From a virus: a DNA stretch of 39,838 nucleotides. Positions 1-39,838 of this stretch are shown here, in pieces. Within the stretch, counting starts at the first letter, position 1. Each line of letters starts with the position of its first letter. A program made the translations under genes and the position numbers. The stretch covers positions 1 to 39,838 of IMG/VR virus record IMGVR_UViG_3300031260_000020; one strand, 5' to 3'. A model generated the notes under the pieces. It ran no database searches, was not told the origin of the DNA, and worked only from the letters and a program-made list of their open reading frames with translations.

Positions 1-141
1 AATACCCAGCCAGTCATGATCCCACGCAACACGAAGAGTGTATAGACCCGCAATCAAGAGTGTGGGCCAAGAAAATATTGTCTTGAACACGCCCACGATC
101 AGGCCGCCCCCGGTAACAACTATCTGTGAGAGCAAGCTCCA
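1..141. repeat. Terminal direct repeat, identical to 39698..39838 (junction of a circular or terminally redundant genome)
   Basis: Positions 1-141 (aatacccagccagtcatgatcc...gagagcaagctcca) match the last 141 nt of the window exactly. Confidence 0.9.
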
Positions 142-999
142 AGCTGTACCGGCAACCTTGAGTGTCAGGAACGCAGCACCCACACCAACAACAGCCTTGC
201 CGAACGGCCCGAGTTCTTCGTATCCTGCCTTGATAGTATCTTTCAACGTCTTGAGAATGTCGGTCGGTTTCTCAATCTTCGAGCTGAAGTCTTCCATCCA
301 GCCCGCAGCTTTCTGAATGAGAGGATTGAAAGTCTTGCCCAGGACCTCCCCGACATCTCCGAGTGCAGACCAGAATCTCTTGATTCCCACCTGCGTGGTT
401 TCCGAGAGCTGCTCGGCAAAGCCGTCATACTTCTGAATCACGAGGTCGATTGCTGCGCCGCTCTTCAATTGTTCTTGAGTCAGTTCTCTTAAGAACGGGA
501 GAGCTTCTCCAAGTTCACCCGTCAATCCTGCCTGAGTCTTCGCAAGATTCTTCATTGCAGAGTTCAGGTCCATTCCCGTGACCTGAGATAACAAAGTAGC
601 GGCAAGTGTGGCGTTCTCGATCTTTTCTTCAGCTATCCCGAGAGACAGCCCGAGTGCCCCGAGCGCCTGATACGTTTCATTCCCCACACCTGTGAGGTGT
701 TGAAGGTTTGTTGAGAGCTTAGTTATTCTGTCATATGTACCCTGTGCGTCTCTCGTGAACCTCTGAGCCGCGATGGAGAGTTTCATCATTGCCTGCTCCT
801 GCTGGCCCCAGAGTTCAATAGACTTCTTCAACGTAGCCACAACAGAGACGGTCCCAAAAACACCCATCAGGGTACGACCTATCTGTTTCACTGTATTATC
901 AAACGACGCGGCTTGAGTCTGCATCGTCTTGATTCCGTCTGTGAAAGGTCTGGCGTTCAGACCGACGTCAAAATTCAATCCTTCGAAAGCCATAGTCAT
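1..999 (-). CDS. Tail tape measure protein, N-terminal portion (continues across the junction into 36017..39838)
   Basis: Minus-strand frame is open from ATG at 999-997 (MTMAFEGLNFDVGLNARPF...) to position 1; the repeat places this in frame with the 1271-aa ORF; in-frame stop upstream at 1102-1104. Confidence 0.6.
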   Translation of the reverse strand, partial: MTMAFEGLNFDVGLNARPFTDGIKTMQTQAASFDNTVKQIGRTLMGVFGTVSVVATLKKSIELWGQQEQAMMKLSIAAQRFTRDAQGTYDRITKLSTNLQHLTGVGNETYQALGALGLSLGIAEEKIENATLAATLLSQVTGMDLNSAMKNLAKTQAGLTGELGEALPFLRELTQEQLKSGAAIDLVIQKYDGFAEQLSETTQVGIKRFWSALGDVGEVLGKTFNPLIQKAAGWMEDFSSKIEKPTDILKTLKDTIKAGYEELGPFGKAVVGVGAAFLTLKVAGTAWSLLSQIVVTGGGLIVGVFKTIFSWPTLLIAGLYTLRVAWDHDWLGI

Positions 1000-1021
1000 C
1001 AACTCCAAAAGAAAGAAGCGC

Positions 1022-1290
1022 TCAATCAAGAGCGCTCCCTCTATTCTGGCTTGCCTGTTTTGCCCTCTCCGCTTCGCGCCTTTCAAGCGTCGAGATTCCT
1101 GTTATTCCGTAGAGATAGATCAATTGATCTTCACGATTGAGGTTTCTCCATTCTTCGAGTGTGAGTCCAAACTTCTGTATGCAGAGCATCACTTTCAGAG
1201 CTTCGGGGACGTAGTCTTCTTCATACTCGAATCTGTCCCAGTCGTACCAGTCACGTACCCGGTACTCTAGCTCTTGCTGGGCAAAAAATC
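1022..1290 (-). CDS. Tail assembly chaperone -1 frameshift extension (T part of a G-T fusion)
   Basis: The -1 frame relative to 1267..1833 is open from a slippery run (coding strand GGA TTT TTT G; A6 on plus strand at 1283-1288) to a stop at 1022-1024; translation ...EYRVRDWYDWDRFEYEEDYVPEALKVMLCIQKFGLTLEEWRNLNREDQLIYLYG...; directly upstream of the tape measure gene. Confidence 0.5.
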
Positions 1291-1833
1291 CAGCGCTTTG
1301 ATGTCACTCGCAATCTTGTTCAGCTGATTTGCAGTGAAACCCAGATCCTTGAGTGCCTGTTCAAACTCCTCTATCTTGTCGATTCCAAACTCTTCGACCA
1401 TGTCAAGACAGATCATTATCATCAGAATCGAGATGTCATTTGTCCTCTTCTCCACGGCCTTGAGATATTCGGAGTCTGTTTTGTCGTACACCATTGACCA
1501 GCCGTAGTTTGGATCGTTCTTCGCCTGATCGAGAGTGAGACCCTCCTCCATGAACTCTTTGCCAGTATTCTTGTTGATTAATCTCATGGTTTTCGGAGCC
1601 TCGGGTGCGGGGTACTTCTCGTGATACAGTTTCAGGACAGGATGATCTCCGAGTGGATAGATCTCGATCTCGGGGAACTCTTCTTTCATCTCTCCATTCT
1701 CATCAATTCGGGTAACTTTGATGACCGAGTATCCGTGAGACCTGAAGTATCCCTTCTTCGATTCATCCTTCATCATTTCTTTCAAATTAAGCCTTGACGC
1801 TTTCTGGGCGCTTGTTTTTGGCTTGTTTCCCAA
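1267..1833 (-). CDS. Tail assembly chaperone (gpG-like); true start probably the internal Met near 1776
   Basis: 188-aa ORF immediately upstream of the tape measure gene, ending in a slippery heptamer with an open -1 frame; overlaps the upstream gene if started at 1833. Confidence 0.5.
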   Translation of the reverse strand: MGNKPKTSAQKASRLNLKEMMKDESKKGYFRSHGYSVIKVTRIDENGEMKEEFPEIEIYPLGDHPVLKLYHEKYPAPEAPKTMRLINKNTGKEFMEEGLTLDQAKNDPNYGWSMVYDKTDSEYLKAVEKRTNDISILMIMICLDMVEEFGIDKIEEFEQALKDLGFTANQLNKIASDIKALDFLPSKS

Positions 1834-2872
1834 GTCTGTTCCCTCCTTTTTTGATCTGTTTCCATGCTATCTTCGCGAGCTTCTCCGGGTAGTCTCCCCA
1901 CGCCAGCTCGTCGTTCTCTATCGAGTTGGTTCTCGCCTTGATGGTTTGTGCAAATGTCGCGCACGCGTAGACCTGCTCCCATTGATCGAAGAGCGCCCAT
2001 GCCTGTGCAAGAGCAACCCACGATTCGCGGAGCCAGGGACACTCGGCCACAGACTTTAGCATCCACTCTATGACCTCACCCGCATCGACTGTCTTGTCTT
2101 GCTTGTGTCTCTGCATGAGAGCTTGCGAGATATACCGCATTGAGAGCGCCCGAAGTTGCTCAATGACCATGCGATTCTCGCCTTCCTCAATCTCTTTCGT
2201 GAGGTCAAGGTGTCTCTTGGCCTCTTCGATGGCCTCTTCAAACCTGTTGTGCATCATAAGTTCTCTGGCTCGAAGCCATGAAAGACGTTGATCTGTGGGA
2301 TCTTCGGAGACAGCCTTGTCGATGAGCTTCTGGTACTCTCTCGGTTTTGATAAATCCTGATAATGCCAGCTGTGAATATCCTCGCAATACACTTCGAGCG
2401 TCTCACCACTTCCGTGCCATGCCAAGATTTCGTGAATTGGAGACTCCCAGTGATAACCGTGCCGGACGTGGATCTTCCACTGGTACATTGAAGCCTTTGG
2501 TTTCGTGCACTTCTCATCGAACCAGCTGAACACGAAAGGCCAGCGAACGAGAGTGGCCTGCGGGTACATTTGAAAGATTTTCTCGACCTTCTTTTTCCAG
2601 CCCTTCTCAATCACTTCGTCGAGGTCAATACAGAGACAAACATCATAGTCTTCAGGCACGTTCTCAAGCGAGATGTTTCTGGCTACGTCGAATCGCCATG
2701 GCTCAACCTTAGCATGAAAGACATTGACCCCGCGTTCTTCGAGAAGCCGGACAGTGTCGTCAGTCGATCCGGTGTCGGTAACAAAAACTCCATCCGCTTC
2801 TTGGATAGAGTCATACCATCGAGGCACATTCTTGGCCTCGTTCTTGCATATCGCATACACTGCGACCTTCAA
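1787..2872 (-). CDS. Family-2 glycosyltransferase with helical/TPR-like C-terminal half
   Basis: N-terminus KVAVYAICKNEAKNVPRWYDSIQEADGVFVTDTGSTDDT and CIDLDE (DXD-like) are typical GT-A/GT2 motifs; 361 aa. Confidence 0.65.
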   Translation of the reverse strand: MKVAVYAICKNEAKNVPRWYDSIQEADGVFVTDTGSTDDTVRLLEERGVNVFHAKVEPWRFDVARNISLENVPEDYDVCLCIDLDEVIEKGWKKKVEKIFQMYPQATLVRWPFVFSWFDEKCTKPKASMYQWKIHVRHGYHWESPIHEILAWHGSGETLEVYCEDIHSWHYQDLSKPREYQKLIDKAVSEDPTDQRLSWLRARELMMHNRFEEAIEEAKRHLDLTKEIEEGENRMVIEQLRALSMRYISQALMQRHKQDKTVDAGEVIEWMLKSVAECPWLRESWVALAQAWALFDQWEQVYACATFAQTIKARTNSIENDELAWGDYPEKLAKIAWKQIKKGGNRLGKQAKNKRPESVKA

Positions 2873-2891
2873 GTTATCCCCTCCCTGTGTG

Positions 2892-3344
2892 TTACACGTC
2901 GTCGTTCCTTTCTATCTCGATCAGTGCAACCGTTCCGGTATAGTACGCTGTACCGTCTGGTGCCCTGAGTGCCTGATTGAATTGGCAGCGTTGTTCCCCT
3001 GCCGTGTCCGCAAAGACCACATAGAACCTGCCTTGATACTCCGTGCCGTCATCGTCTTGCATCGGGAACGTGAGAGTCATTGGGTTCGCGACGTTCGGTT
3101 TTGCCTTCAGAAAGTCGTGGAGCTTTGAGACTTCCTTCTGCGTTGCGACTCCGTTTTCATCCCAAGTCAGCAAAAAATACTGAAACGTCGAACCCTGTTC
3201 GGTTTCCCATTTGTCGACTATCTCCCCGCTTTCCGCATCTGTCTCTGTGGGAGCGTTCGGAGAATAAAGCCAGCTTTCGTAGTCTTTCGGTTTGAGCTGG
3301 ATTATCTCTCCTCCATACTCAAGACTAATCATAGAGATCACCAC
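2892..3344 (-). CDS. Hypothetical protein (tail module)
   Basis: 150-aa ORF, protein-like composition, no recognisable motif. Confidence 0.4.
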   Translation of the reverse strand: MVISMISLEYGGEIIQLKPKDYESWLYSPNAPTETDAESGEIVDKWETEQGSTFQYFLLTWDENGVATQKEVSKLHDFLKAKPNVANPMTLTFPMQDDDGTEYQGRFYVVFADTAGEQRCQFNQALRAPDGTAYYTGTVALIEIERNDDV

Positions 3345-4230
3345 ACTTTATGACAATGTTTTCAGTTCCGTTCAGGTAGTCCAGAGAAGCGTCCGGGTCG
3401 ATATGGCAGACTCCAAGATACTCTGTGCTCGAATCGCGAGGGTTTTCTACCTTGAGTCTGAATTTCTTGTCTCTGTATTCTTCGAGAATGTTGTCTTGAG
3501 ATTCGATGAGGTCTTTCCCCACCGAGACCGTGTATGTCTTGTTGCCCGAGACTTTCAAGGGTGCTCCGTCAACATTGAGATACCCTGTTTTCTCTTCGTT
3601 CTCGGTAACCGTCAGGTCAACGAGAGCCGGGACGGTTTCAACCGTTCCCGAGACTTCAAAATATTCAAGTGCAACAACCGGTTCTTGATATTCGACAGCG
3701 AGGTTATACTCAATTTCTATCAGTGCCTTACGCCTCGGGGCGGTAGCAAATGTCACATTGGTAGTCGTAACGGTCACGTCGGTTTCTTCGAGACCATTCA
3801 CATATGCCTTGATGTTTGATGTGCCGCTTGGTGTCTCTGAGAGAGTAAACACCGTAGTGTAACCGTCTCCTTCAAATATGTCCAATTGTTTCTGCTGATT
3901 TAGTTCAACCAGCGCGCCGTCTCTATCCGTGACAAACCCAACTCCAGCACCTATTTCTGTTGTTTGAGGAATGAGGAGCATGTATAGAACTTCATGATCT
4001 CCATCTGCCACGGTTGCCGCGCAGGTAGTCCCCACAACAGTACCGGTCACACCTCCGGTGACTTCACAGTTTCCCTTGCCAGCATACGAAAGTGTTGCAG
4101 TGTTGCTCGCAAAAGTCACTGTCTCCTTATACCAACGTCTCAGCAACTTCCAGCCGTTATCATAGTATATTTCGTCTCTTGCTTCTGAATTCCCGTAAAG
4201 TTCATAATCCAGATACATTGAATCGTTCAT
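3325..4230 (-). CDS. Putative virion structural protein with Ig-like beta-rich C-terminal region (possibly major tail protein)
   Basis: 301 aa; Thr/Val-rich segment YTTVFTLSETPSGTSNIKAYVNGLEETDVTVTTTNVTFATAP resembles Ig-like domains; located in the tail module. Confidence 0.35.
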   Translation of the reverse strand: MNDSMYLDYELYGNSEARDEIYYDNGWKLLRRWYKETVTFASNTATLSYAGKGNCEVTGGVTGTVVGTTCAATVADGDHEVLYMLLIPQTTEIGAGVGFVTDRDGALVELNQQKQLDIFEGDGYTTVFTLSETPSGTSNIKAYVNGLEETDVTVTTTNVTFATAPRRKALIEIEYNLAVEYQEPVVALEYFEVSGTVETVPALVDLTVTENEEKTGYLNVDGAPLKVSGNKTYTVSVGKDLIESQDNILEEYRDKKFRLKVENPRDSSTEYLGVCHIDPDASLDYLNGTENIVIKCGDLYD

Positions 4231-4268
4231 AGATTCACCTCCAGTAGAGGTTCAAGATATTTGCGTCA

Positions 4269-4958
4269 TTATCTTAGAAATTCACTCAGTTCTTTCTCTG
4301 ATGCGTCTTTTCCATATATCCTGTGAAATTCTCTGTGACACTTAGGGCAAAGTAAAATACCGTTACTGGGTTCACACATTAGTTCTGCATAAAATCTAAC
4401 TGGTTTGATGTGGTGAACGTGCATCCTGCTTTTTGAAGTACCACACTTTTGACATCGATAATTGTCTCTTTCTCTAACTGCTTTCAGAAAGTCTTTGAAT
4501 TTCTTTGTTGCTCTAATTCGTTCAAATTTAGAAGAGATTCCGCCTTTCCAATTTGGATGTTCTGCACCTTTTCTTCTTAGCTTTTTAGCAGATTCGGCCG
4601 CCTTTTCTTTTTGCAAACAACCGCAACTTTTAGTCTTCCCATTTTCCAACATCCAATTCATAACTTCAATTTGGTTACCACACTCACAATTGCATATCGA
4701 ATAACCCGTCCTTGAAGAAGGAGCAATAACTGTGAGCCTACCGTATTTTGATCCAACTTCAAGTTCCTTCCCCAGTTTTTGTTTTAATGCACACTTTTGG
4801 CACATATGATGACCGTTTTTCACTAACCTGCTATAAGCAACGATTCTCACTTCTTCACAGACTGGGCATTGAACCTCCACCAACTTGGTTGATGATGGTT
4901 TCAACTCGCTAACTGGTATTTGTCTTCCTCTGTATTTAACAGTTTTCGTCAGTATCAC
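4269..4958 (-). CDS. HNH endonuclease with N-terminal Cys-rich zinc-finger-like region (GTG start)
   Basis: C-terminal motif YRCQKCG...HVHHIKP...NGILLCPKCH is a classic HNH signature; RBS GAAGGAG 8 nt upstream of GTG. Confidence 0.8.
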   Translation of the reverse strand: MILTKTVKYRGRQIPVSELKPSSTKLVEVQCPVCEEVRIVAYSRLVKNGHHMCQKCALKQKLGKELEVGSKYGRLTVIAPSSRTGYSICNCECGNQIEVMNWMLENGKTKSCGCLQKEKAAESAKKLRRKGAEHPNWKGGISSKFERIRATKKFKDFLKAVRERDNYRCQKCGTSKSRMHVHHIKPVRFYAELMCEPSNGILLCPKCHREFHRIYGKDASEKELSEFLR

Positions 4959-5008
4959 CGCATCATCTCCTTCAATATATTATATCACATAATGCGGTAA
5001 GACGAATG

Positions 5009-5078
5009 ATTATTCAGATTCCAATAGAAAGGTCCTGCATTTGAGCTGTTATTCCAATTGCTGCCCTGTTGAAAGCAG
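5009..5078 (-). repeat. DGR-like template repeat (TR), non-coding, between the target gene stop and the HNH gene
   Basis: 70-bp match to 5206..5275; all 13 mismatches fall at TR positions that are A on the coding (minus) strand; in the target frame TR encodes AAT/AAC-rich ...CFQQGSNWNNSSNAGPFYWNLNN. Confidence 0.75.
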
Positions 5079-5145
5079 GCTCCTTCAATCACAGACCAAA
5101 CTTGTATGTTAGTGTACCAAAATTGTTACAAACCGGCGAAAACCA

Positions 5146-6504
5146 TTAAACCGTAGGAACATAGCAGGCGCGCGCCCCGATGCTCCGATACCGATAAGCG
5201 AACGAATAAGCCAGATACCAATAGAAAGGCCCCGCATATGAGCCGTTATACCAATGGCCGCCCCGTAGAAAGCAGTTCGTACTATAACTAGACGGTGCAT
5301 AAAGATGGTCACATACGAACTTGCTTGCAGATGGAACATCTGTTTGGATACTTTTCGGCAGGAACAGACCTTTAGAGTCAGGAACCCAATAAAAATTTTT
5401 CAGGTATCCGTTTGTAACCGGAGGAGAGCACGGTATCTGAGTATAGCCGGCCAGTGTATTGTTGTATGGCCTATCGGGAGCTACATAATAACCATCAGAC
5501 TTTATGCCTCCACCGTCTGTAAACTCCCACATGTCGCCCCACCAGTTTTCCAGCCCGAATAGAGAAACAGCCTCAAGGTTTGTACCGCCTGTGTCCACTG
5601 CTCCGAGTGAAGCCGTCGCACCTGTAAGCTCTGATTCGTTCCCTGTGCCAGATGCTTTTCCTGTTATGCCCTGTCCTATCATCGCCTGCGCATTGAAATT
5701 TGCATATTTGATAAGATAGAGAAGATTAACCATTCCGGCCTGTTTCAAATCAACAAGTCCCCATCCGGTACCCCTGTTCTCTGCCATGGTGCGAAATTCC
5801 GGTAAGGTTTGATTTGATTTTGGCTTTCTTCCCGATACCGAACGCAGCATGTGGTTTGGTAAATCACCAGTAGCTATCAGTATCGGAGTCGAACCGTCTG
5901 ACGGGTCTTCTATCCATGTACTATCTGAGATTCTTTGCACTGTACCTTTATATGCTCCTAAATATATTTCTTCGAGTATTTGCCCGCCAATTACAAAGCA
6001 GTCAAATGGTACAAACCCAGGCAGCGGTTCAGGTGAAAAATACATTCTTACTTTTTCGTCTTCCGGTGAGTAATATGTGAAATAATAGGCTTTCTTGAAC
6101 CTTGATACCACATCGCCGGCCGTGCCATCTTCAATAAATCCTGGATCACCAAAAGATGCGACCCAATTTCCAGCACTATCGAGAGTCATTCTTTCTATGC
6201 TCGCAAATGGTTCGATAAGATTAAAATCGCTAGAACCCATCCCGACGGCTTTTCCTATCCTGGTAAGCACGGGAGAGCTATCACTGAGATCCCATTCCAC
6301 ACCATATGCATCATCTGGGATATTATGAGCTATCAGCTCTCCTATTCTTGCTCCAGTCAAACCGGAATGTTTGCCATAGAAATGAGGAATATAACCGCAC
6401 CGCCCTTTGTTTGTGCGATTCAGCATTCTTGTTTGAACTTCCTGCTCTGTGAGTTCTTCTATGCTGAGACTGATCTTTTTCTTCTGCCATTTTCTGTATG
6501 CCAT
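5146..6504 (-). CDS. DGR-type variable target protein; C-terminal C-type-lectin/FGE-sulfatase-like fold; putative receptor-binding/tail protein
   Basis: C-terminus ENWWGDMWEFTDGGG...FLRGGHWYNGSYAGPFYWY...RSIGARACYV resembles FGE/CLec domains of DGR variable proteins; carries the VR at its 3' end. Confidence 0.7.
   Translation of the reverse strand: MAYRKWQKKKISLSIEELTEQEVQTRMLNRTNKGRCGYIPHFYGKHSGLTGARIGELIAHNIPDDAYGVEWDLSDSSPVLTRIGKAVGMGSSDFNLIEPFASIERMTLDSAGNWVASFGDPGFIEDGTAGDVVSRFKKAYYFTYYSPEDEKVRMYFSPEPLPGFVPFDCFVIGGQILEEIYLGAYKGTVQRISDSTWIEDPSDGSTPILIATGDLPNHMLRSVSGRKPKSNQTLPEFRTMAENRGTGWGLVDLKQAGMVNLLYLIKYANFNAQAMIGQGITGKASGTGNESELTGATASLGAVDTGGTNLEAVSLFGLENWWGDMWEFTDGGGIKSDGYYVAPDRPYNNTLAGYTQIPCSPPVTNGYLKNFYWVPDSKGLFLPKSIQTDVPSASKFVCDHLYAPSSYSTNCFLRGGHWYNGSYAGPFYWYLAYSFAYRYRSIGARACYVPTV
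5206..5275 (-). repeat. DGR-like variable repeat (VR) inside the 3' end of the target gene
   Basis: Encodes ...NCFLRGGHWYNGSYAGPFYWYLAY; differs from TR only where TR has adenine; followed by a GC-only stretch GGGGCGCGCGCC (IMH-like) absent next to TR. Confidence 0.75.
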
Positions 6505-6549
6505 TTTCTGCCTCCCAGTTCAAAGAATGAAGGGGCCGGAGCCCCTCCA

Positions 6550-6786
6550 TCAGAGAGTTTTTTCATCAATTACTTCTTTGGTTCCAAGACTCTTCACGAT
6601 TGCCTCTTTCAGTTCTTCGAGAACAACATTCGTAGCAATACACTGGAGAGTAACCTTGTTGTTCTCAATGAACTTGTCTGATTCGATCGTGATTGGACCT
6701 TTAATTGTGGTTTTTGTAGGATTCTCGAACTTTGCTAACAGTTTGCCATTCCCATCGTACAACTCAATCTCATAAACGATGTTCAT
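6550..6786 (-). CDS. Hypothetical protein
   Basis: 78-aa minus-strand ORF between the putative major tail gene and the DGR target. Confidence 0.3.
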   Translation of the reverse strand: MNIVYEIELYDGNGKLLAKFENPTKTTIKGPITIESDKFIENNKVTLQCIATNVVLEELKEAIVKSLGTKEVIDEKTL

Positions 6787-6794
6787 AACATCAC

Positions 6795-7355
6795 CTACGA
6801 TGTGATGTCGGTTGGGGCGCCCACAATCTGCATCCTGAGAGTAACCTGAGCTTTGTTACTGGTGCTGAAGGTCGCAGAAATCGGTCTGACATATTTATAG
6901 CTCTTTCCAAACGCCTTCGAAGTTCCAGCGTTGTTGAACAAGACTTTCATACCGATTGTGAACCAGCTAGTAGCAAGATTTGCAGATACGGTAGTGCCGT
7001 CGATACTCTTCTTCAAGTATGCAGAGCCATCATTCGTGCTAACAAGCGCGGTGGCTCCGTTGCTCTCTTTGTGATTGTTGAACCATTCGTTCAGAGCATA
7101 CTTGTTAGTTGCTACATCATCATCGTTGATGTCGACTGTTATTGAGAACTCTGGCAGATTGACAGTGTCGTCACCCTCTTCTATGCTGTTGAAAACACCT
7201 TGAGGTGCATAACCTTCGGCCGGAGCATCAACGACAGGTTCGGGCAGTTCCGGAACGTCAGCATACCCGGTGATGGTCTCGGTGAATGGTGTGGTAGGTG
7301 TACCATCAAACAGCGAGATGGTCACATGTTTCTTTCTAAGATATGGTCTTCCCAT
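6795..7355 (-). CDS. Putative major tail (tube) protein
   Basis: 186 aa, follows head-tail joining genes; assigned by position and size only. Confidence 0.4.
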   Translation of the reverse strand: MGRPYLRKKHVTISLFDGTPTTPFTETITGYADVPELPEPVVDAPAEGYAPQGVFNSIEEGDDTVNLPEFSITVDINDDDVATNKYALNEWFNNHKESNGATALVSTNDGSAYLKKSIDGTTVSANLATSWFTIGMKVLFNNAGTSKAFGKSYKYVRPISATFSTSNKAQVTLRMQIVGAPTDITS

Positions 7356-7373
7356 GAGAAGTTCCTCCTTTGT

Positions 7374-7787
7374 TTACTCGATAAATTCATAATACACAGT
7401 GATGGCTCGCACTGCGTAGTTGCTTAATGTTGATTGCTGAGAGAGTTCATATCTGGAGATCTGAAGCTCTCCAAGCTTAACTGTTGGTTTTCCACCTACA
7501 TAATCCATGACAGGAATGCTACTTGAGTCTTCGATTGCCGCTGTGAGAGTGCCGATGATAGTATCAAGCGTACTTACGCTCTTTGAATGTACGAGTAGTT
7601 GAGTAAAGTCGTACTGATACGCTTTTCTATCATCCTGTGCCCTCCCCATCGACGTTTGAAGTTCGATGAAGCTATCCTCAGTCATATTCTCATTCTTTCG
7701 ATCTATGTACCATGTCCCCGAGCTGTACTTTCCTGAAAAGTACATTCTCAGAGACGCTTGAATGTTTCGGTAGAGAGCGGCTGTCAT
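7374..7787 (-). CDS. Putative tail terminator / tail completion protein
   Basis: 137-aa ORF in the canonical position between neck and tail tube genes. Confidence 0.35.
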   Translation of the reverse strand: MTAALYRNIQASLRMYFSGKYSSGTWYIDRKNENMTEDSFIELQTSMGRAQDDRKAYQYDFTQLLVHSKSVSTLDTIIGTLTAAIEDSSSIPVMDYVGGKPTVKLGELQISRYELSQQSTLSNYAVRAITVYYEFIE

Positions 7788-8173
7788 TGCGCCTCCCTCC
7801 TCTTTTTCTCGATCCAGGCTTCGATTCTGGAACGTATGAATTCAGGGGCCTTCCTTCGCCATTCTTCCAGTGTCCTGCGAACGAAGCCCGCACTTGCTGC
7901 CTGACCGTATTCAACATGGAAGATATACTCAGTGTTGTTGAAGATATGGTAGGCCATAGCATTTGCAATTTCTGCGAGATTCCAATTGCCTCTCAAGTTC
8001 CCGGTCACCACGGGCGAGTTGAGCTTCAGGTCCGCAAGTATTGCATTAGCCAAATCACGGATAACAACTTTTGCGCACTCGGGGTCCATCCGTGCCGAGA
8101 GAGTCTGCAGGTATCTGTTCAGTTCATCCACATTGGAGCGAATATGAGCGTCTCGATCGCCATGCTGTTTCAT
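7784..8173 (-). CDS. Putative HK97 gp10-like neck/tail component
   Basis: 129-aa ORF, translationally coupled (4-nt overlaps) within the head-tail joining cluster. Confidence 0.4.
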   Translation of the reverse strand: MKQHGDRDAHIRSNVDELNRYLQTLSARMDPECAKVVIRDLANAILADLKLNSPVVTGNLRGNWNLAEIANAMAYHIFNNTEYIFHVEYGQAASAGFVRRTLEEWRRKAPEFIRSRIEAWIEKKRREAQ

Positions 8174-8508
8174 GTGGGGTTGACTCCGAGAACGAAGTAA
8201 CCCTGCTTGATCTCCAGCACGTCAATACGGTAGTCTGAACTACTGATCTCCAGTATGTCTGATACTGAAACCTGAGCGGTGAGAATAACCCTCAGAGACT
8301 CAAGAGTCAGTTTGCCGTTGCTGCTCGCTATCTGATCCTGTCTCCACGAACCGACATATCCTGTCGTCTCAGTCTCTGTACCATACGTTGTCGTTTGCAA
8401 GCCTGTGAGCGGGTCGATCGTGGTAGTAGGATTTGACTTGATGGTGAACGTGGACTGGGGCAGCTTCCTTATGAAAGCAGGATTGAGACTTGCAAACTTG
8501 CTAAACAT
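8170..8508 (-). CDS. Putative head closure / head-tail adaptor protein (start at internal Met; the 207-aa track ORF is an over-extension)
   Basis: Upstream part of ORF 8170..8793 overlaps the connector gene in another frame; MFSKFASLNPAF... begins at 8508. Confidence 0.4.
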   Translation of the reverse strand: MFSKFASLNPAFIRKLPQSTFTIKSNPTTTIDPLTGLQTTTYGTETETTGYVGSWRQDQIASSNGKLTLESLRVILTAQVSVSDILEISSSDYRIDVLEIKQGYFVLGVNPT

Positions 8509-8809
8509 AGCGGACCCTCCGGTATCTGTTGAGAGTGTCGAGAATCTTCTGAGAATAACTACTCTCGTATGTAACCGAAGCACCTTCGAGACTCTGAGAC
8601 TTAATACCCGAGTTCTCCAGGAGCTGATGATCCACCATGTCACAGGCTGTGAGTTGGAGAGCTGCTGGCAAGTCTTCGTCATCGTCATATCCACAGATAC
8701 CCTTGATCTCGGCTTCAACTGCTGCGATGATTGCTGTGAGTTGAGTGTCTTGAGTTGAGCTTGTGATTCCCCTGAGTGCTTTGTATTGAACAAGTGTCAG
8801 GAGTGCCAT
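8501..8809 (-). CDS. Head-tail connector protein (gp6-like)
   Basis: 102 aa, directly downstream of the capsid gene cluster; size and position typical. Confidence 0.5.
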   Translation of the reverse strand: MALLTLVQYKALRGITSSTQDTQLTAIIAAVEAEIKGICGYDDDEDLPAALQLTACDMVDHQLLENSGIKSQSLEGASVTYESSYSQKILDTLNRYRRVRYV

Positions 8810-8821
8810 TCTAGCACCTCC

Positions 8822-8846
8822 AAAAAAAGGGGGCCGTCTAGGCCCC
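8822..8846 (-). terminator. Rho-independent terminator after the capsid-region genes
   Basis: Minus strand reads GGGGCC-tagac-GGCCCC followed by TTTTTTT. Confidence 0.6.
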
Positions 8847-8850
8847 TTTG

Positions 8851-9360
8851 TCAGTATTCAAACTTGAATAAATACACCCCGGCGCTAGGTACGCCATTCG
8901 TGGCCACTGCATTCCAGGTAATTTTCACCGAAATATAGCCTCCCGATTTGAGAAATTGGAAGGTTTCTAGCGGGCCGATTATGAGACTTGCGGTGTCAGT
9001 GCCAGTCAGGGTTTCGGAGAGAGACCCTTTCGAAGCCCCTCCAAAGTCACCCGGGAGAATTTCGATAACTATACTGGTTGCATAAGCTGTGGGTGAAGCG
9101 TCGGAGAGTTCTGGGTCTATCTTGAACATAATGCCGATCCGCGGCGAGTCATACGCGAAATTGAATGTGCAGGCGTATGTATCTGTCGAGACATTGGTTG
9201 AGGTCGTGGCTACCAGCGTGAGAGTTGCCATATCGCTCAAGTCGAACTCCACGAAATCTCGTCCTGTGACTTCGACCGGGGTGGCTGTGATGGTCGTACC
9301 AAAAGTAAGCCCTCCAACTAGGAGGGCGATAACAACAAATAGCGTTGCAAGTTTTTTCAT
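8851..9360 (-). CDS. Signal-peptide protein of unknown function encoded between capsid and connector genes
   Basis: N-terminus MKKLATLFVVIALLVGGLTFGTTITA is signal-peptide/TM-like; Thr/Ser-rich beta-type body. Confidence 0.5.
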   Translation of the reverse strand: MKKLATLFVVIALLVGGLTFGTTITATPVEVTGRDFVEFDLSDMATLTLVATTSTNVSTDTYACTFNFAYDSPRIGIMFKIDPELSDASPTAYATSIVIEILPGDFGGASKGSLSETLTGTDTASLIIGPLETFQFLKSGGYISVKITWNAVATNGVPSAGVYLFKFEY

Positions 9361-9371
9361 GATATCACCTC

Positions 9372-10214
9372 TTAAGCCTTCGCCACAAGAAGATCGACGA
9401 GGCAGGCTGGCTGGACTACTTTGCGACCGTACACATAGAGCCCTTTAATCGCATCTGCAAACATCTTCTCGACTCTGTATGCCTCGGTCTTGTTGACCTG
9501 ACCAGCAAAACTAATAGCCTCTCTGGTCCCGGCGAGAACGTGGTAGTCTGTGCCTCCGGCATCGATATCGAGGTTGTTCGACCAGAGTACAGAGAATCCG
9601 GCGACTACGGGGACAACTCCTGTGGCCATATAGTTCTGCCACGCCTGCTTGTAATCGTCGTCTTTGAGAAGAACTCCGTGATACCAGGGCGGAATGACTA
9701 TCCATCTACCCTCTCTGGGAACGTTGTGCTCATCCATCTTAACACCAACATCGACTATGAGGTCATAGGGGTTTTCATTTCCCACTGCGTTGCCCACAGA
9801 GTAGGCGGCCCCGGCATTGTCCATCGTTATGCCCGCATCTCCGTGAAGACCTGCGACATCCTGGTCAATCAGGTCCGCAAGAGCGTATGCCGCTCTGGCC
9901 ATAGCTTTATCCATGAGCGTCACGTTCGACTGGGCGGCGTCCACGTCATCGACGTAGAAGTTGTAATAGTGGAGCTGGTCGATGAGCAGGAGCTGTTGGG
10001 CGGAATCGAGCTGGTCAGGATCCGCGATCGCGACGTTTTTAACGTAAGGCTTTACTGTAATGTTGCCTATCTGGTTGATTCTAACTGTATCTCCGGCGGC
10101 TTTAATCTCGCCTTCGTAATCTGTATTCACGAGCTGTTTGAACACGAGATTCTTGTCGAGATGCCGCTGAAGTCTTGTGCTCCATATTTCGGGAATGAAG
10201 TTATCTACTGGCAT
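9372..10214 (-). CDS. Major capsid protein
   Basis: 280 aa, immediately downstream of the scaffold gene; N-terminus MPVDNFIPEIWS... typical of capsid proteins. Confidence 0.65.
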   Translation of the reverse strand: MPVDNFIPEIWSTRLQRHLDKNLVFKQLVNTDYEGEIKAAGDTVRINQIGNITVKPYVKNVAIADPDQLDSAQQLLLIDQLHYYNFYVDDVDAAQSNVTLMDKAMARAAYALADLIDQDVAGLHGDAGITMDNAGAAYSVGNAVGNENPYDLIVDVGVKMDEHNVPREGRWIVIPPWYHGVLLKDDDYKQAWQNYMATGVVPVVAGFSVLWSNNLDIDAGGTDYHVLAGTREAISFAGQVNKTEAYRVEKMFADAIKGLYVYGRKVVQPACLVDLLVAKA

Positions 10215-10229
10215 TTCTGTTCACCTTCC

Positions 10230-10844
10230 TTAAAGTTTAATTTTTCCTTCTTCAAATAGCTTGTTAAATTTGGCCGGGTCTTTCTTGGCCATTTCCCTTG
10301 CCTGTTCCTTAGAAATCATTCCTGGCACGGGTTCGGGATTCGCGGGTTCGCGGCCGTTATTCTTGAGCAGTTGCTCCGTGAGCGTTTTTTTGTAGCTTTC
10401 CAAAACCTGCTCATATGCGGCGAGGGTCTTTTCTGTGCTCTCTTCGTCAGAGCCGATCAGGTTATCCACGATATCAACGGGAAGCTTCTTTTCGGAGAGC
10501 TTCTTGATGGCGAGATTCTTGAGACTTTCTTTTTTTCTGGCCGCTGCCTCCTCATTGAGCCTCTGCTCAAGCTCCCTGATCTTCTTCTGTTCGGGTGTCT
10601 CTTCCGGATTGACTTTCGCGATTTCTTCGTCCACCAGTTTCTTGAGGTTGTTCGCCTTCCAGGTCTCAAGACCCTTCGTATGGAAAGAATCGCGGTAGCT
10701 TTTGAATATGTCGTTCTTCTCGACGAATTCACCCACATTGTCTTTAGTGACGGTCGCCAATGGGTTGAACTTCGATGTGAATTCCTTTACTTCTGGTGCT
10801 TCGATATTCGTTTTGATTAGTTCCAACGCTTCTTTGAGTTCCAT
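10230..10844 (-). CDS. Scaffolding protein
   Basis: 204 aa, Lys/Glu-rich predicted coiled coil, located between head morphogenesis and capsid genes. Confidence 0.6.
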   Translation of the reverse strand: MELKEALELIKTNIEAPEVKEFTSKFNPLATVTKDNVGEFVEKNDIFKSYRDSFHTKGLETWKANNLKKLVDEEIAKVNPEETPEQKKIRELEQRLNEEAAARKKESLKNLAIKKLSEKKLPVDIVDNLIGSDEESTEKTLAAYEQVLESYKKTLTEQLLKNNGREPANPEPVPGMISKEQAREMAKKDPAKFNKLFEEGKIKL

Positions 10845-10967
10845 TTATATATCTCCTGTCCCTCAGAGTGCCACATGCCCTCAGAGTGGTTTGTATTGTT
10901 CATGAAAAAGCCCCAGCGTATAGGCACCGGGGCAGGGAGGTGAGAATGAAGAAAGTACGTGTCTTGT

Positions 10968-11273
10968 TTAGAAAAACTTGTTTATGTTATCTGTTGCTTC
11001 TGAAAGTGATTCAGCAATCTTCTCTGCAAGCTGGTCAATTTCTTTCTCAGCCCCATCTAAGTTCAAAGTTACGCCCAAACAGTTTGGATGCTCCGGTTCT
11101 TTTACTTCCGGTAGCTTGTTCCAGTTGTAGAACACTTCCTTCATTTTCAGATACAGCTCTGCCGAATACTCTGCTCTTCTCTCACCCAGAGCTTTGACTA
11201 TCTCGTGCATTTCATGTGCATTTAGTTCAAGTGTCACCTTTCTCAAACTTACCCCTCCTTCTGTTTCTTCCAT
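10968..11273 (-). CDS. Hypothetical protein
   Basis: 101-aa ORF. Confidence 0.3.
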   Translation of the reverse strand: MEETEGGVSLRKVTLELNAHEMHEIVKALGERRAEYSAELYLKMKEVFYNWNKLPEVKEPEHPNCLGVTLNLDGAEKEIDQLAEKIAESLSEATDNINKFF

Positions 11274-16101: not shown

Positions 16102-16389
16102 CTATCTCAATTTTTCTAATGCACTGCCAGAGTTCGTACATGATTGCTCCTCATCAAGTTCCTTCTCCTGGTTCTCCCTCATCTGTGCGAAGAGTCTGAG
16201 ACACCGCCATGAGCAGAACTCGGCTCCAGACTCCAAGATTTTCCAGTGATGATTCATAGTCTCTACTTTTCCGCAATAGTCGCACCGATGAACCAGCAAA
16301 ATGACCTCCAAATAAAAGGGAGCCCGAAGGCTCCCTGGTGTGGAAGGAAGAAGGTAATGGAAGCGGGCCGAGAAGTCGAATCTCGACAA
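16102..16389 (-). CDS. Hypothetical Cys-containing small protein
   Basis: 95-aa ORF; true start may be internal. Confidence 0.25.
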   Translation of the reverse strand: MSRFDFSARFHYLLPSTPGSLRAPFYLEVILLVHRCDYCGKVETMNHHWKILESGAEFCSWRCLRLFAQMRENQEKELDEEQSCTNSGSALEKLR

Positions 16390-16485
16390 TCGCCTTATGA
16401 GAGCGATCTGCGTCCGCCGCTGCCCGCTTTGAAAAACGGGGCAGTTTCATTGAAGCCCCGCCGACCGAGAAACCCCGATCCATAT

Positions 16486-16907: not shown

Positions 16908-16999
16908 TGGGCGCAGCGAGAATCGAACTCGCAAGCAGCACACGATGCTGCTGTAATCTCTCGATTACTACGGTATCGGCCTGGCATACCATTGCGCCC
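16908..16999 (-). tRNA. tRNA-like gene with long variable arm (type II; possibly Ser, anticodon uncertain)
   Basis: Perfect 7-bp acceptor stem GGGCGCA/TGCGCCC, T-arm GCGAG-TTCGATT-CTCGC, extra-arm hairpin AGCAGCA-tcgtg-TGCTGCT; anticodon arm not canonical by hand folding. Confidence 0.45.
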
Positions 17000-19826: not shown

Positions 19827-19968
19827 CTCATCACTCCTTTGGTTTACCTTTCTCAACTTTCTTGATTGTCAGTTTCACTTTGAACGTCTCTTTCGGCGAT
19901 ATCATCAATAAGTTGTCTATTAACCAGCCATTGTCTTGTTCATAGTAAGGAATGCCATACTCATCTAC
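19819..19968. repeat. 150-bp direct repeat, copy A (about 97% identical to 20273..20422)
   Basis: Offset 454 bp; 5 mismatches in 150 bp; spans a small ORF, RBS and start codon of the next gene. Confidence 0.85.
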
Positions 19969-36016: not shown

Positions 36017-39000
36017 TCACCCTACCTGAAGTTCTACGCCGCGATCGCGCAGGTTCTTGTATATGAGATCTGCGAATCTTCGGGCGCTCTCGTCATCTTC
36101 TGTGAGAATGTCATTGCCTCTGAACTCGAAGTGGTAGTTGTTTGTGATGTGCTGGCTCGATCCAGCTTGAAAAGTCTGCCCTGTCGAGGATTGTGGCAGC
36201 TCGTAATCTTCCATTCTTTCTGAGATCGAGCGGCCCATGTTTGCCCGCTGATCTTCCGACAACAACGGACTGAATAGACCTCCAATGAACGGAAGTCCGC
36301 TGAGCCAGACAAAGATACCGTCCACAAACAGCACAAGCTGGTCCGCAACGAAAGAGATCGTGGCTCCGAGCCAGCCCAAGGCCTTGAAGAACGGCTGGAG
36401 AATGAGGAGACCCGCACCGAAGAGATTGAATGTCGACGCAAAGACTCTCCCTATACTGATGAGCGCGTCTCCGAGCGGTTTCAAGAGATTGATGATCGGG
36501 CCCAGTATCTCCATCACGCCTGTGAGTATTGTGGTGATCGGGTTGAGCAACATATTGATTGCTTCAAGATTGACAACTTGATTTAGGAGACCCACGGCAA
36601 ACAGTTCACCGGCCGTGGCGAGATTCCCCATCACATCTGTGAGTCCTTCCATGCCTGGTCTCAGGTTTGCGAACACAGAGACCAGCTCGCCTGTATTTTC
36701 GTCTACCTTGAATATCTCCGAAGAGTCACCCACTATCGAACTGCGCTCAATTTTCTTTTTGAGATCATTTAGGGAGTTCCCCAAGTCGCGAGAAATGTTT
36801 CTGAGATAGACTACTCTCTCTGTGTATTCCCCCAATTCTATTTCTCCATTTGTGAATTGTTTTTCTAAGTCACTCATCGCACTATCAAGGAAACTCATTT
36901 GTCGAGATATTCTTTTTATCTCGGTTTCTCCAAAGACGTCGGAAATTGAAGACAAGCGGTCCCGGGTTTCGGCAATTGAAAGGAAGAAACCTTCAAACAC
37001 ATCGTCTGATGGCTTCTCTAACTCCTGAAATTGACTCGTGAGTTTGTCTAATTCGGTAAAAGGTGCGTCAATGTCAAGACCAATTGTTTTAAGCAAGTCT
37101 CCGAGTGCGTTCTTAATCATCCCGAAGTCTTTCTTCGCAGTCTCGGCATAGTCTCCAACTGCACTCGTGAGAGTGTTGAGAATTATATCCCACCATGTAA
37201 GCTGGCCGCCACCAACACTGCCCACATCTATCTGTGTTGCCGTGCCTGTGGCAAATCCTTTGATCTGTTTCTTGAGCCCGGCCAACCCACCAGCCGAGAG
37301 CCCCTGTGCATTGATTGCTTTCAGGAATGGCAACCACTTCTCCGTTGACTTTGCATTGACTACGAACTCGCCATCACTCAACATTGCTGGTATCAGATCA
37401 TCAGTCGGACTGCCTGCACCGGATATGTAACCGCCGCTTGCCATGCCAGCGGTGACCGGCAATCTTTGCCAGAGAAGATCTCTGATTCCAGACAATCTGT
37501 TGGCAATTGCATTTAGATAACTGTTCGCGGCCTGTGCTTCCACGAAGAGATTTTCAAGAGTTATGACTGTTTCTTTCTGAGTAACTGCTTGTTCTTCTGC
37601 GGCTGTGCCCATAACGTCAAACGTCTTTGGATCTCCAACGAAAGATTTTGCAATAACTTCTGGAGTATTCTCAACAAAGAAGTTGACCGCATCGGCGACC
37701 TCGGCAATGTGGGCGAGAAGCTCATCGTTCAGGCTAGACCAATCACCGTTGATTAGATTCTCAAACTCAACCATGAAGTTTGTGAGTAATATCTTAGTAG
37801 CGTCTGGAAGAGTTGAGAGATCCTCACCGCCCGCAATCCAGTTTTGAGTGTTCCCAAAGCCACGGTTCCATGCAATGATCGCATCTCTGAGAGAACCGAA
37901 AGAGTCCATAAGCCAATCAAGCGTTTTCTCAGCTGCAAGAGTGGAGTAAACAGTGTCAGTTGCGGCGGTCTCATAATCCCAGTTTGTGGGGAACCATTTC
38001 TTAGCCTGTTCTATTCCAATAGGCTCGAACTGGAACGCCCCTCTTCCTTCCCCACCTTTTGCACCTATGAGATACTTCGATTCTGCATATGCAAGAGAAG
38101 CAACTACCGTCGGATCAAGCAATGATTGATTGAGTGCATTTATAAGATCAAAGGTCAATTTTTCCATTGCCGGTGTGATTATCGTGGTCGGATCAGAGGA
38201 TATGCCCGAGTAAGCATCTAATTGTTTCGCAGTTGCTATCATTCTATCTATCATGTCGGTAATTTCTTTAGAAAGCGGCGTTGTGCGGATTTCCATACCC
38301 GAGATTGGAAATCCCGCCATTGCGTACATTCCCTCTAGTTCAGGGTATGCCATGCTTTCTTTCTTGAACCTAATAGATTCACCACCACCGGCTGGCACAA
38401 AATTCTCGAACCCACCAGATCCACCACCACCACCACCAGATGGTTTCTTTACTCCGAGACCTAGCAACTCTTGAAGCCAACCGAAGCTGAAAAAAGATTT
38501 GATTCCTTCGAATAACTGATTACCTATTTCAAGCCCGGCCTCATAGATTGTAAGAGCTGTATTTTTCACAGCTTCCCAAACCCAAGCCCCAAAGTCAAGC
38601 ATCTTGTCAAACGGCCACTTTAACCCGGCAAGAATCGTCATGCCTATATATATACCTGAAGCATTGAGCTGATCCAGGAATGTTTCTGTCTTAAGGCCTG
38701 CAATAGTATCTGTGTAGAAGTCACCGAGCGTGTCTTTTAACCATTGATCCCATGAGTCACCAATTCCGGCATCAACAAGCCAATTGCCAAATTCCTTTCC
38801 AGTCTCCCATCCGGCAACAACGAGTGAGACTCCAAGCCCGAGTGTACCACTTTTCGTAATCATCCAAGTAGCAGCTCCGGCTTCAAGCGCCTTCACGGCA
38901 GAATTGACCAGCCCATTAGAAGAAACATCATCACCCAGGATTACATCGCTTATGAGCGCCAGCCCTACCGCAAGTCTCCATGAACCACCGAGAAACTTTG

Positions 39001-39838
39001 TAATCCCGATGACTGCAAGTATACCTAGTGCGTTGTCTATCCAGGACTGATCGAAGTTGTCAACGAATCCACTCACAAGGAACTTCGCTGGGATCTCGAA
39101 TATCTCTTGCGCAAGCTCGACGCCAAGATCAAATTTCTTCGAGATTGATTCAGTCTCTCCGATTTCTTTGATTGTTGCGCTCATCTTCTCAAGTGCCGAG
39201 TTCGTAGTATCAAGATATTTCTGAGAGTCACCACCCAGAAGCCCCGTGAACCCAGCTCCAATCGTGGCAATACTGTTATAGACTTCTTCAGCTAGAAGCT
39301 GAATAGTATTAAGCAAGCCCTTTGTATCTTCGACTTCTGACTTGAATTTCTCAGTCAAGCCAAGCGTCAAGATAGATGCGGTGATTCCAATCACAGGACT
39401 CCCGGTTGCAAGGGTAATAAGGCCACCCCAAGTAATGACGCTGAGAAGTTTTCCTTTGAAAGTCTCAGCTTCATTCTCTCCGAACACTATCTTCGCCGGT
39501 ATCTGAAGAATGTTTGAGCCAAGATCCACAAGCCCCTGCATGAATTCTTTAACATCTGTGGCTTTGGTGAGTTCTTCCCATGAAGCCTTGACGTCACCGA
39601 ACGCCTTCTTTGTATTCTCTCCAAAGTCATCAACATTGATGCCCATACTCTTGAGAACACCATTAATAGCTTCACCAGCTTGTGATACTGTGCCTCTAAT
39701 ACCCAGCCAGTCATGATCCCACGCAACACGAAGAGTGTATAGACCCGCAATCAAGAGTGTGGGCCAAGAAAATATTGTCTTGAACACGCCCACGATCAGG
39801 CCGCCCCCGGTAACAACTATCTGTGAGAGCAAGCTCCA
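36017..39838 (-). CDS. Tail tape measure protein, C-terminal 1271 aa; N-terminus continues at 1..999 across the junction; contains a lytic-transglycosylase-like segment and a Gly-rich linker
   Basis: Frame open to the window edge; segment LAYAESKYLIGAKGGEGRGAFQFEPIG...AWNRGFGN resembles SLT-domain motifs (near 37800-38100); GGGGGSGG linker near 38400; largest gene, after the chaperone frameshift site. Confidence 0.8.
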   Translation of the reverse strand, partial: WSLLSQIVVTGGGLIVGVFKTIFSWPTLLIAGLYTLRVAWDHDWLGIRGTVSQAGEAINGVLKSMGINVDDFGENTKKAFGDVKASWEELTKATDVKEFMQGLVDLGSNILQIPAKIVFGENEAETFKGKLLSVITWGGLITLATGSPVIGITASILTLGLTEKFKSEVEDTKGLLNTIQLLAEEVYNSIATIGAGFTGLLGGDSQKYLDTTNSALEKMSATIKEIGETESISKKFDLGVELAQEIFEIPAKFLVSGFVDNFDQSWIDNALGILAVIGITKFLGGSWRLAVGLALISDVILGDDVSSNGLVNSAVKALEAGAATWMITKSGTLGLGVSLVVAGWETGKEFGNWLVDAGIGDSWDQWLKDTLGDFYTDTIAGLKTETFLDQLNASGIYIGMTILAGLKWPFDKMLDFGAWVWEAVKNTALTIYEAGLEIGNQLFEGIKSFFSFGWLQELLGLGVKKPSGGGGGGSGGFENFVPAGGGESIRFKKESMAYPELEGMYAMAGFPISGMEIRTTPLSKEITDMIDRMIATAKQLDAYSGISSDPTTIITPAMEKLTFDLINALNQSLLDPTVVASLAYAESKYLIGAKGGEGRGAFQFEPIGIEQAKKWFPTNWDYETAATDTVYSTLAAEKTLDWLMDSFGSLRDAIIAWNRGFGNTQNWIAGGEDLSTLPDATKILLTNFMVEFENLINGDWSSLNDELLAHIAEVADAVNFFVENTPEVIAKSFVGDPKTFDVMGTAAEEQAVTQKETVITLENLFVEAQAANSYLNAIANRLSGIRDLLWQRLPVTAGMASGGYISGAGSPTDDLIPAMLSDGEFVVNAKSTEKWLPFLKAINAQGLSAGGLAGLKKQIKGFATGTATQIDVGSVGGGQLTWWDIILNTLTSAVGDYAETAKKDFGMIKNALGDLLKTIGLDIDAPFTELDKLTSQFQELEKPSDDVFEGFFLSIAETRDRLSSISDVFGETEIKRISRQMSFLDSAMSDLEKQFTNGEIELGEYTERVVYLRNISRDLGNSLNDLKKKIERSSIVGDSSEIFKVDENTGELVSVFANLRPGMEGLTDVMGNLATAGELFAVGLLNQVVNLEAINMLLNPITTILTGVMEILGPIINLLKPLGDALISIGRVFASTFNLFGAGLLILQPFFKALGWLGATISFVADQLVLFVDGIFVWLSGLPFIGGLFSPLLSEDQRANMGRSISERMEDYELPQSSTGQTFQAGSSQHITNNYHFEFRGNDILTEDDESARRFADLIYKNLRDRGVELQVG
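39698..39838. repeat. Second copy of the 141-bp terminal repeat
   Basis: Identical to 1..141; implies a unit genome length of about 39697 bp. Confidence 0.9.

Follow-up and report, generated by a model that had tools for sequence, protein, structure and literature searches.

An SgtA-like glycosyltransferase gene in a phage tail module and its possible role in tail-fibre glycosylation

Introduction

The glycosyltransferase SgtA of Clostridioides difficile has 358 residues, with a GT-A catalytic domain followed by four tetratricopeptide repeats (TPRs) (PMC7157674). It depends on Mn2+ and on uridine diphosphate N-acetylglucosamine (UDP-GlcNAc), and it attaches beta-O-GlcNAc to Thr/Ser in the GPT collagen repeats of BclA3, a collagen-like spore (exosporium) protein whose gene adjoins sgtA (PMC7157674). 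A similar design is found in GmaR of Listeria monocytogenes, where a glycosyltransferase domain of about 180 residues precedes TPR repeats and the sugar, GlcNAc, is put on flagellin (PMC9638930). Here, we analyse a gene of this kind encoded by a virus. It lies on the minus strand of IMG/VR record IMGVR_UViG_3300031260_000020 (positions 1 to 39,838; we call this whole 39,838-nucleotide stretch the window), among the tail genes of a phage, and its 361-residue product is called GT throughout. Our analysis suggests that GT acts in the cytoplasm and glycosylates Ser/Thr of one of the phage's own tail-fibre proteins, a proposal to which we give a probability of about 50%.

Two other sets of systems are relevant to the comparison. 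SunS and ThuS are peptide glycosyltransferases (glycocin S/O-glycosyltransferases), and SunS comes from the SPbeta prophage. In mycobacteriophages, glycosyltransferase genes in the structural operon have reportedly been linked to virion glycosylation, and the glycans are said to lie on the capsid and tail tube.

Results

Sequence and predicted structure of GT

A preliminary description of this DNA, made from the letters and a list of open reading frames (ORFs), had read the gene as a 361-residue protein like family-2 glycosyltransferases, with the motifs DTGSTDDT and DLDE and a helical C-terminal half, with structural genes on one side of it and those for the tail chaperone and tape measure on the other. 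This reading was borne out: the ORF is exact, the motifs occupy residues 33-40 and 83-86, and the gene order agrees. Two of the checks it had proposed, a profile search with PF00535 and a structure prediction, both pointed to a GT-A glycosyltransferase, so that the lack of a GT-A fold, its own ground for refutation, was not observed. Residues 8-111 match Pfam family PF00535 (Glycos_transf_2) with 31.4 bits, above the gathering cut-off of 23.3. Residues 1-343 match phrog_13126, 'beta-1,4-glycosyltransferase' (E = 5e-80), which PHROGs files under 'moron, auxiliary metabolic gene and host takeover'. An NCBIfam scan gave no usable family for GT or its neighbours. The C-terminal half has only faint Pfam matches, to TPR_14 and TPR_19; TPR Pfam domains are present in homologues, of which more than 1000 were found at E <= 1e-3 (the best 91% identical).

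We built an AlphaFold2 model of GT on an alignment of 47 sequences. The model is confident (predicted local distance difference test, pLDDT, 90.5; predicted template modelling score, pTM, 0.86), with an alpha/beta domain at residues 1-175, helices throughout residues 180-343 and a disordered end at 345-361. Across the 47 homologues, down to 37% identity, D33, D38, D83 and D85 are invariant, and so are H147, E148, H170, D173, K176 and R178. No transmembrane or hydrophobic segment was found in GT (Kyte-Doolittle maximum of 0.61 over 19 residues). The profile matches and the modelled fold, far beyond chance, confirm GT as a family-2 glycosyltransferase of the GT-A fold. They are best explained by a soluble, DxD metal-dependent GT-A enzyme fused to a predicted TPR-like acceptor-binding domain.

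Closest characterised enzymes

A sequence search of the PDB retrieved SunS (E = 4e-6 over residues 8-230, 30 bits), with the DLD of GT opposite its DAD, and GmaR at E = 2e-3. When the GT model was compared with the PDB by Foldseek, more than 290 structures matched at E <= 1e-3, mostly GT-A enzymes. SunS and ThuS (7msn, 7msp, 7msk) were the top structures, aligned over both domains (E about 4e-15; template modelling score 0.6-0.65). The next group, made of TarS, TarP, hyaluronan and cellulose synthases and SpsA, starts from 3e-7 and matches in the catalytic domain only; the lead of SunS/ThuS over TarS is of eight orders of magnitude in E.

We recovered the sequence of sgtA through its published cloning primers (PMC7157674), with exact matches in nine metagenome contigs. 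In contig L190, positions 2004-3080 encode the 358-residue SgtA, both terminal residues agreeing with the primers, and a 684-residue GPT collagen-like protein follows. GT and SgtA are 28% identical over 235 residues (BLASTP, 71 bits, E = 3e-18). When the profile of 47 GT sequences was aligned to SgtA with hhalign, the match extended over 334 columns and the whole TPR half (probability 99.75, E = 2.4e-27, 21% identity). By sequence, SgtA is the closest experimentally characterised homologue of GT, nearer than SunS, and not its orthologue.

The likeness to SgtA concerns several traits. The lengths are nearly equal (358 and 361 residues), the GT-A domain precedes the TPRs in both, and the motifs KNE, DTGSTD, ARN, DxD and PIHE are common to them. 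Both proteins are soluble, and sgtA stands beside the gene of its substrate just as the 40%-identical bacterial relatives of GT stand beside BclA-like GPT collagen genes. In contrast to SgtA, GT is encoded by a phage, within a tail operon, in a genome lacking a collagen-like acceptor. GmaR shares the domain order and a protein acceptor, but it has an additional antirepressor domain (637 residues in total) and its similarity to GT is weak. SunS and ThuS are the best structural matches, and SunS is also prophage-borne, yet their identity to GT is of 15-17%. TarS, TarP and the Gtr-type phage enzymes have the GT-A fold and, in some cases, a phage or prophage origin; they differ in that GT lacks membrane segments, a trimerisation domain and any GtrA-like partner, and its phage has no recognisable lysogeny genes. 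Hence, GT-A followed by TPR-like helices in a single soluble chain, the layout of SgtA, GmaR, SunS and ThuS, is also that of GT.

Relatives in phages and bacteria and their gene partners

At least 565 IMG/VR loci carry a relative of GT. Among the three genes upstream of it in 35 viral loci, Collagen was the top Pfam family (13/104); Mtd_N and further GT2/TPR proteins came next, and the Collar domain of phage tails ranked below these. In approximately 25 of 46 viral loci (in the range L004-L083), a collagen-like ORF stands no more than about 11 genes away from GT and almost always upstream of it. The majority of them belong to the GPT/GAT type, with Thr/Ser, nearly always Thr, at the Y position of some 50-80% of the triplets. 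Judged by sequence, such Thr-rich GPT/GAT triplets are of the type that SgtA accepts.

In the clade closest to the GT of the window, a different protein, with RCC1 repeats, is encoded immediately upstream of GT, as seen in P0004 (53% identity), P0006 (46%), P0007 (44%) and L008 (41%). There, the stop and start overlap or are separated by 2 to about 10 nucleotides, and the genes lie in tail or late modules of temperate phages. RCC1-repeat proteins may be a second class of partners or acceptors. We located RCC1-repeat beta-propeller genes at L002:1823-3040, L166:3234-4418 and L008:517-1686, and in the locus of P0006.

For bacteria, a search seeded with a homologue from Peptostreptococcales gave more than 7,900 relatives, with no named C. 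difficile protein among the best 120. The 36-43% identical members of the family, among those listed, are almost all from Bacillota (including Lacrimispora, Hungatella, Flavonifractor, Brevibacillus and many gut Bacilli and Clostridia). We called ORFs in 71 bacterial loci (among L087-L165), which gave 862 ORFs. Collagen-like ORFs occur in 34 of the 71 loci, and every one of the 37 lies at most four genes from GT, with 22 in position -1, 10 in position -2 and almost all on its strand. In a Pfam scan of the three neighbours on each side, Collagen came first (13/120) and BclA_C was found in five. The examples that we read are BclA-like proteins with GPT/GAT repeats. Other bacterial loci have tandem GT paralogues within sugar-nucleotide clusters.

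We found no report tying this family to phage collagen-like proteins or tail fibres in the literature searched, a limited collection. A BLAST comparison of the neighbours of GT in the window with those of distant GT homologues revealed no shared proteins.

Position of GT in the late operon

The ends of the window (1-141 and 39698-39838) are identical direct repeats of 141 nucleotides, which indicates a complete circular or terminally redundant genome. Nearly all genes are on the minus strand. In the downstream direction, a large terminase, an SPP1-type portal and a Mu-F-like protein with an intein-like insert are followed by a scaffold-like ORF, the major capsid protein, a gp6-like connector and an HK97 gp10-like protein, and then by p137, p186, p78, p452, an HNH endonuclease, p301, p150 and GT (table 1). 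The gene of GT is separated from its neighbours, both on the same strand, by 19 and 10 nucleotides. The protein p186 had no family match in Pfam or PHROGs.

Downstream of GT, the chaperone ORF contains a slippery heptamer, T_TTT_TTG, and its -1 frame is open for 86 codons, with a computed end at 1022. By its sequence, the ORF with its -1 extension is a classical signature of G/GT-type tail assembly chaperones. The tape measure gene comes next and runs across the junction of the window; positions 36017..39832 have matches to tape measure PHROGs.

Promoter- and terminator-like sites show no excess over the shuffled expectation in this region, and none flanks GT. GT therefore looks like a part of the late operon, and an independent transcription unit was rejected on these grounds. 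A GC-rich, terminator-like hairpin directly 3' of p78 might act as a transcriptional attenuator. The phage yielded neither an integrase nor a repressor.

Table 1. Features of the window around the gene of GT
Feature	Position	Strand	Basis or remark
p186, putative major tail protein	6795..7355	minus	position after HK97 gp10-like protein and p137 only
p78	6550..6786	minus	follows p186
Terminator-like GC-rich hairpin	6529-6547	minus	directly 3' of p78, before the fibre island
p452, tail protein with C-type-lectin-like C-terminus	5146..6504	minus	phrog_5302 'tail protein', E = 6e-71
Variable region (VR) of diversity-generating retroelement	5200-5275	minus	inside p452 C-terminus
Template repeat (TR) remnant of diversity-generating retroelement	5003-5078	minus	direct repeat D3, intergenic
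HNH endonuclease	4269..4958	minus	PF01844; abuts truncated TR, at the site of the reverse transcriptase of relatives
p301, three-domain all-beta virion-type protein	3325..4230	minus	AlphaFold2, 172 relatives
p150, 145-150 residues	2892..3344	minus	lineage-restricted; always immediately upstream of GT (synteny)
Ribosome-binding site GGGAGGGG (GGAGG type)	2878..2885	minus	sequence reading; 5 nucleotides before the TTG start of GT
GT gene, 361 residues	1787..2872	minus	ORF, TTG start 2872-2870
GT-A catalytic domain, residues 1-175	2348..2872	minus	AlphaFold2 secondary structure, invariant residues
DTGSTDDT nucleotide-binding motif, residues 33-40	2753-2776	minus	within GT-A domain
DxD motif D83-L-D85	2618-2626	minus	aligned to DAD of SunS and of SgtA
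TPR-like all-helical domain, residues 180-343	1844..2335	minus	AlphaFold2 helices; presumed acceptor-binding module
Tail assembly chaperone ORF, 169 residues	1267..1776	minus	10 nucleotides past GT stop
Slippery heptamer T_TTT_TTG	1282-1288	minus	inside chaperone ORF
Tape measure, N-terminal part	1..993	minus	start at 993; continues past junction into 36017..39838

A fibre island with a constant end

Relatives whose GT is 70-94% identical have the order p137, p186, p78, fibre or receptor-binding protein (RBP) gene(s), p301, p150, GT, chaperone and tape measure. The fibre, p150, GT, chaperone and tape measure genes are kept in every relative with enough sequence, despite changes in the RBP, reverse transcriptase (RT) and HNH genes. 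More distant relatives (p186 72% identical) have a different fibre island after p186. Since the RBP part varies among relatives, the interval from the major tail gene to the chaperone gene appears to be a swappable fibre island, of which p150 and GT are the constant end.

The two proteins encoded just upstream of GT are both candidate acceptors. Homologues of p150 are essentially absent, with one cluster among 5.8 billion proteins; it could also be an adaptor or a fibre chaperone. The AlphaFold2 model of p301 (pLDDT 79.6, pTM 0.35) has three beta domains, and the protein recurs as the C-terminal module of fibre-like proteins of 400-1000 residues in relatives. For example, L169:1659-3761 encodes a single protein of 700 residues that begins like p452, with the same N-terminus (MAYRKWQKKK.SLSIEELT), and ends in 240 residues equal to p301. 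This fusion, as read from the sequence, suggests that a common virion-attachment N-terminus is shuffled as a module between fibre proteins. We did not call p301 a tube protein, as its matches to tail-tube/Hcp folds are weak (E = 8e-4 for the best and no stronger than 1e-3 for the others).

The gene of p452 is associated with the remains of a diversity-generating retroelement (DGR). The TR and VR share a 64-nucleotide core (5015-5078 and 5212-5275) with 84% identity, and each of the 10 differences lies at an adenine of the coding-strand TR (hypergeometric P = 6e-7). The TR reads ...QQGSNWNNSSNAGPFYWNL, with the counterpart ...LRGGHWYNGSYAGPFYWYL in the protein. The C-terminus of p452 matches TaqVP, a DGR variable protein with a CLec, or C-type-lectin, fold (PDB 5vf4), and p452 is presumed to be a DGR-type RBP. 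No RT-like ORF was found in the window or in the actinophage-type loci examined. Because the window has no RT, its DGR is either a remnant or reliant on an RT supplied in trans. Two relatives, L007 and L179, have an intact DGR, in which a variable protein is accompanied by an Asn-rich TR and by an RT of 334 residues that carries the motifs IGNYTSQ and YMDD and matches RVT_1. An HNH endonuclease occupies the place of the RT in the window and in L001, and L005, L006, L172, L173 and L178 have neither. The HNH gene looks like a mobile insertion that replaced the RT or came after its loss.

Other features of the genome and hints on the host

The window encodes a peptidoglycan glucosaminidase, a replisome-organiser (Phage_rep_org_N) and RecT; the latter two are typical of phages that infect Gram-positive bacteria. 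When positions 1-12000 were compared by megablast with 50,697 phage records, nothing matched. One 4.6-kb contig with a 93% identical GT (L086, JAHFZE010000110.1) is binned in a metagenome-assembled genome of the archaeon Methanomethylovorans, an assignment that is probably a mis-binning.

Several other features of the window were recorded. The Mu-F-like head morphogenesis protein (584 residues, 11249-13003, minus strand) has a weak intein-splicing match at residues 274-524, and a 230-residue ORF without a Pfam match (11432-12124, plus strand) lies on the opposite strand inside the intein-like insert. Two direct repeats of 150 nucleotides (19819-19968 and 20273-20422), 97% identical and 454 nucleotides apart, are found in the early/replication region beside a C5-cytosine methylase gene. 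Genes for tRNA Met-CAT (16358-16428) and Ser-CGA (16908-16999) and a second HNH endonuclease (17140-17670) lie just upstream of the terminase genes.

Discussion

Proposed function and candidate acceptors

We propose that GT, whose transcription and translation would accompany those of the late tail genes, would use a common host UDP-sugar. A host donor is suggested because we found no sugar-nucleotide genes in the genome; UDP-GlcNAc or UDP-Glc would be the likeliest, by analogy with SgtA, GmaR and SunS. The sugar would be moved onto Ser/Thr, possibly Cys, of a tail-fibre or accessory protein in the cytoplasm, before assembly. The first candidates for the acceptor would be p150 or p301, because elsewhere the acceptor gene lies directly upstream of GT, and then p452 and p186. 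Modification might affect the stability of the fibre, shield it from proteases or antibodies, or tune receptor binding. The preliminary description had suggested glycosylation of virion proteins or modification of host surface receptors. Our analysis favours virion proteins, because GT is a predicted soluble, TPR-bearing, full-length homologue of SgtA within a conserved fibre cassette.

Another protein of the phage deserves mention. Right after the major capsid gene, p169 (8851-9360, minus strand) has a hydrophobic N-terminal segment, MKKLATLFVVIALLVGGLTFG, and 22.5% Ser+Thr, the highest value of the 15 proteins tabulated. This protein might be an acceptor instead, or else a decoration protein.

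Some observations weigh against a fibre-modifying GT. The window has no collagen-like or RCC1-like ORF, the types of partners seen elsewhere, no GXT/GXS runs are found in any of its minus-strand frames, and none of the structural proteins near GT has a conspicuous Ser/Thr-rich linker. The identity to SgtA is low, with 28% in the glycosyltransferase domain and 21% in the profile alignment. A tblastn search of the 50,697 phage records with GT gave 69 hits (E <= 1e-5), among which the homologues in jumbo phages appear to lie outside structural genes; the few annotated neighbours seen, such as a WhiB regulator and a tryptophan halogenase beside the best match, have non-structural roles. Tail-fibre regions are also hot spots for morons, and adjacency alone is no proof.

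Alternative explanations

If the target belonged to the host, GT would glycosylate a protein or surface structure during infection, such as a collagen-like or BclA-type protein, an S-layer protein, flagellin or another surface protein, and receptor masking would then lead to superinfection exclusion or keep the progeny from sticking to debris. Phage-encoded glycosyltransferases that modify receptors are an established concept, SgtA and GmaR do modify bacterial surface proteins, and the bacterial homologues at 40% identity pair with BclA-like proteins of the host; the absence of collagen-like and RCC1-like partners from the window counts here as well. However, GT is a late gene set tightly between the fibre and chaperone genes with no promoter or terminator of its own, the cassette of fibre, p150 and GT is kept across relatives, and many other phages pair GT with a fibre gene of their own. 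The lack of a detected integrase or repressor also makes lysogenic conversion unlikely. On balance, we regard a host target as unlikely. We are more sceptical of a hitch-hiking moron without a role in the virion, acting like TarS or TarP on a small molecule, wall teichoic acid or another polymer. The PHROGs class of the family and the match of the GT-A domain to TarS/TarP (E about 1e-6) would fit it, as would the site after the major tail gene, a variable island with swapped modules and an inserted HNH gene. But the TarS/TarP matches concern only the catalytic domain, the trimerisation domain is absent, and the full-length matches are only to TPR-bearing enzymes acting on proteins or peptides. 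Moreover, GT is retained as other genes of the island change, and it has no independent transcription signal, which leaves this explanation decidedly improbable.

Two further explanations have even less in their favour. GT might be inactive, its TPR domain serving as a chaperone in fibre assembly or as a minor structural component, given that TPRs are protein-binding modules and the gene is beside those of chaperones. We judge this very improbable, as the nucleotide- and metal-binding residues are invariant in the 47 homologues and common to the active SgtA. SunS and ThuS, the nearest solved structures, would be compatible with a glycocin-type bacteriocin system, in which a SunS-like GT modifies a small secreted peptide containing Cys. 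Yet, the subset of ORFs scanned includes no C39/ABC exporter, no thiol-disulfide oxidoreductase and no precursor peptide gene, every ORF of at least 250 residues has another assignment, and the small ORF past the chaperone is its -1 frameshift extension. Since SgtA is also closer in sequence than SunS (71 against 30 bits), a glycocin system is scarcely conceivable. We also rejected glycosylation of DNA: there is no hydroxymethylase among the ORFs scanned, and the fold and the TPR domain, to our knowledge, fit no known DNA glucosyltransferase.

Implications for phage biology

A precedent for a virion target is in mycobacteriophages, where the glycosyltransferase gene also lies inside the virion structural operon. 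The likeness is of gene placement only: there is no detectable sequence similarity, Mycobacterium phages are absent from the organism counts for the 69 tblastn hits, the host phylum probably differs, and here the enzyme bears TPRs and belongs to a fibre/receptor-binding cassette. If GT modifies tail fibres, virion glycosylation would extend from mycobacteriophages to phages probably of Bacillota, and from the capsid and tail tube, the reported sites, to the receptor-binding apparatus.

Taken alone, GT is readily recognised as belonging to a large and already annotated family, and the association seen at the level of the family is of more interest. We tentatively suggest, while leaning towards doubt, that SgtA-like TPR glycosyltransferases are a widespread and undescribed phage system that O-glycosylates tail fibres or RBPs, with a cassette that here includes a DGR-diversified RBP. 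In phages, the genes of this family typically come straight after those for GPT-type collagen-like, RCC1-like or other fibres. The presence of GT beside BclA-like collagen proteins in bacteria and beside GPT collagen-like fibres in phages provides a testable annotation rule, which would cover hundreds of genes labelled 'beta-1,4-glycosyltransferase' or 'TPR repeat-containing glycosyltransferase'. If the suggestion is true, glycosylation would be part of the host-recognition apparatus in phages of Gram-positive bacteria, with a bearing on host range, on fibre stability and on the immune visibility of therapeutic phages.

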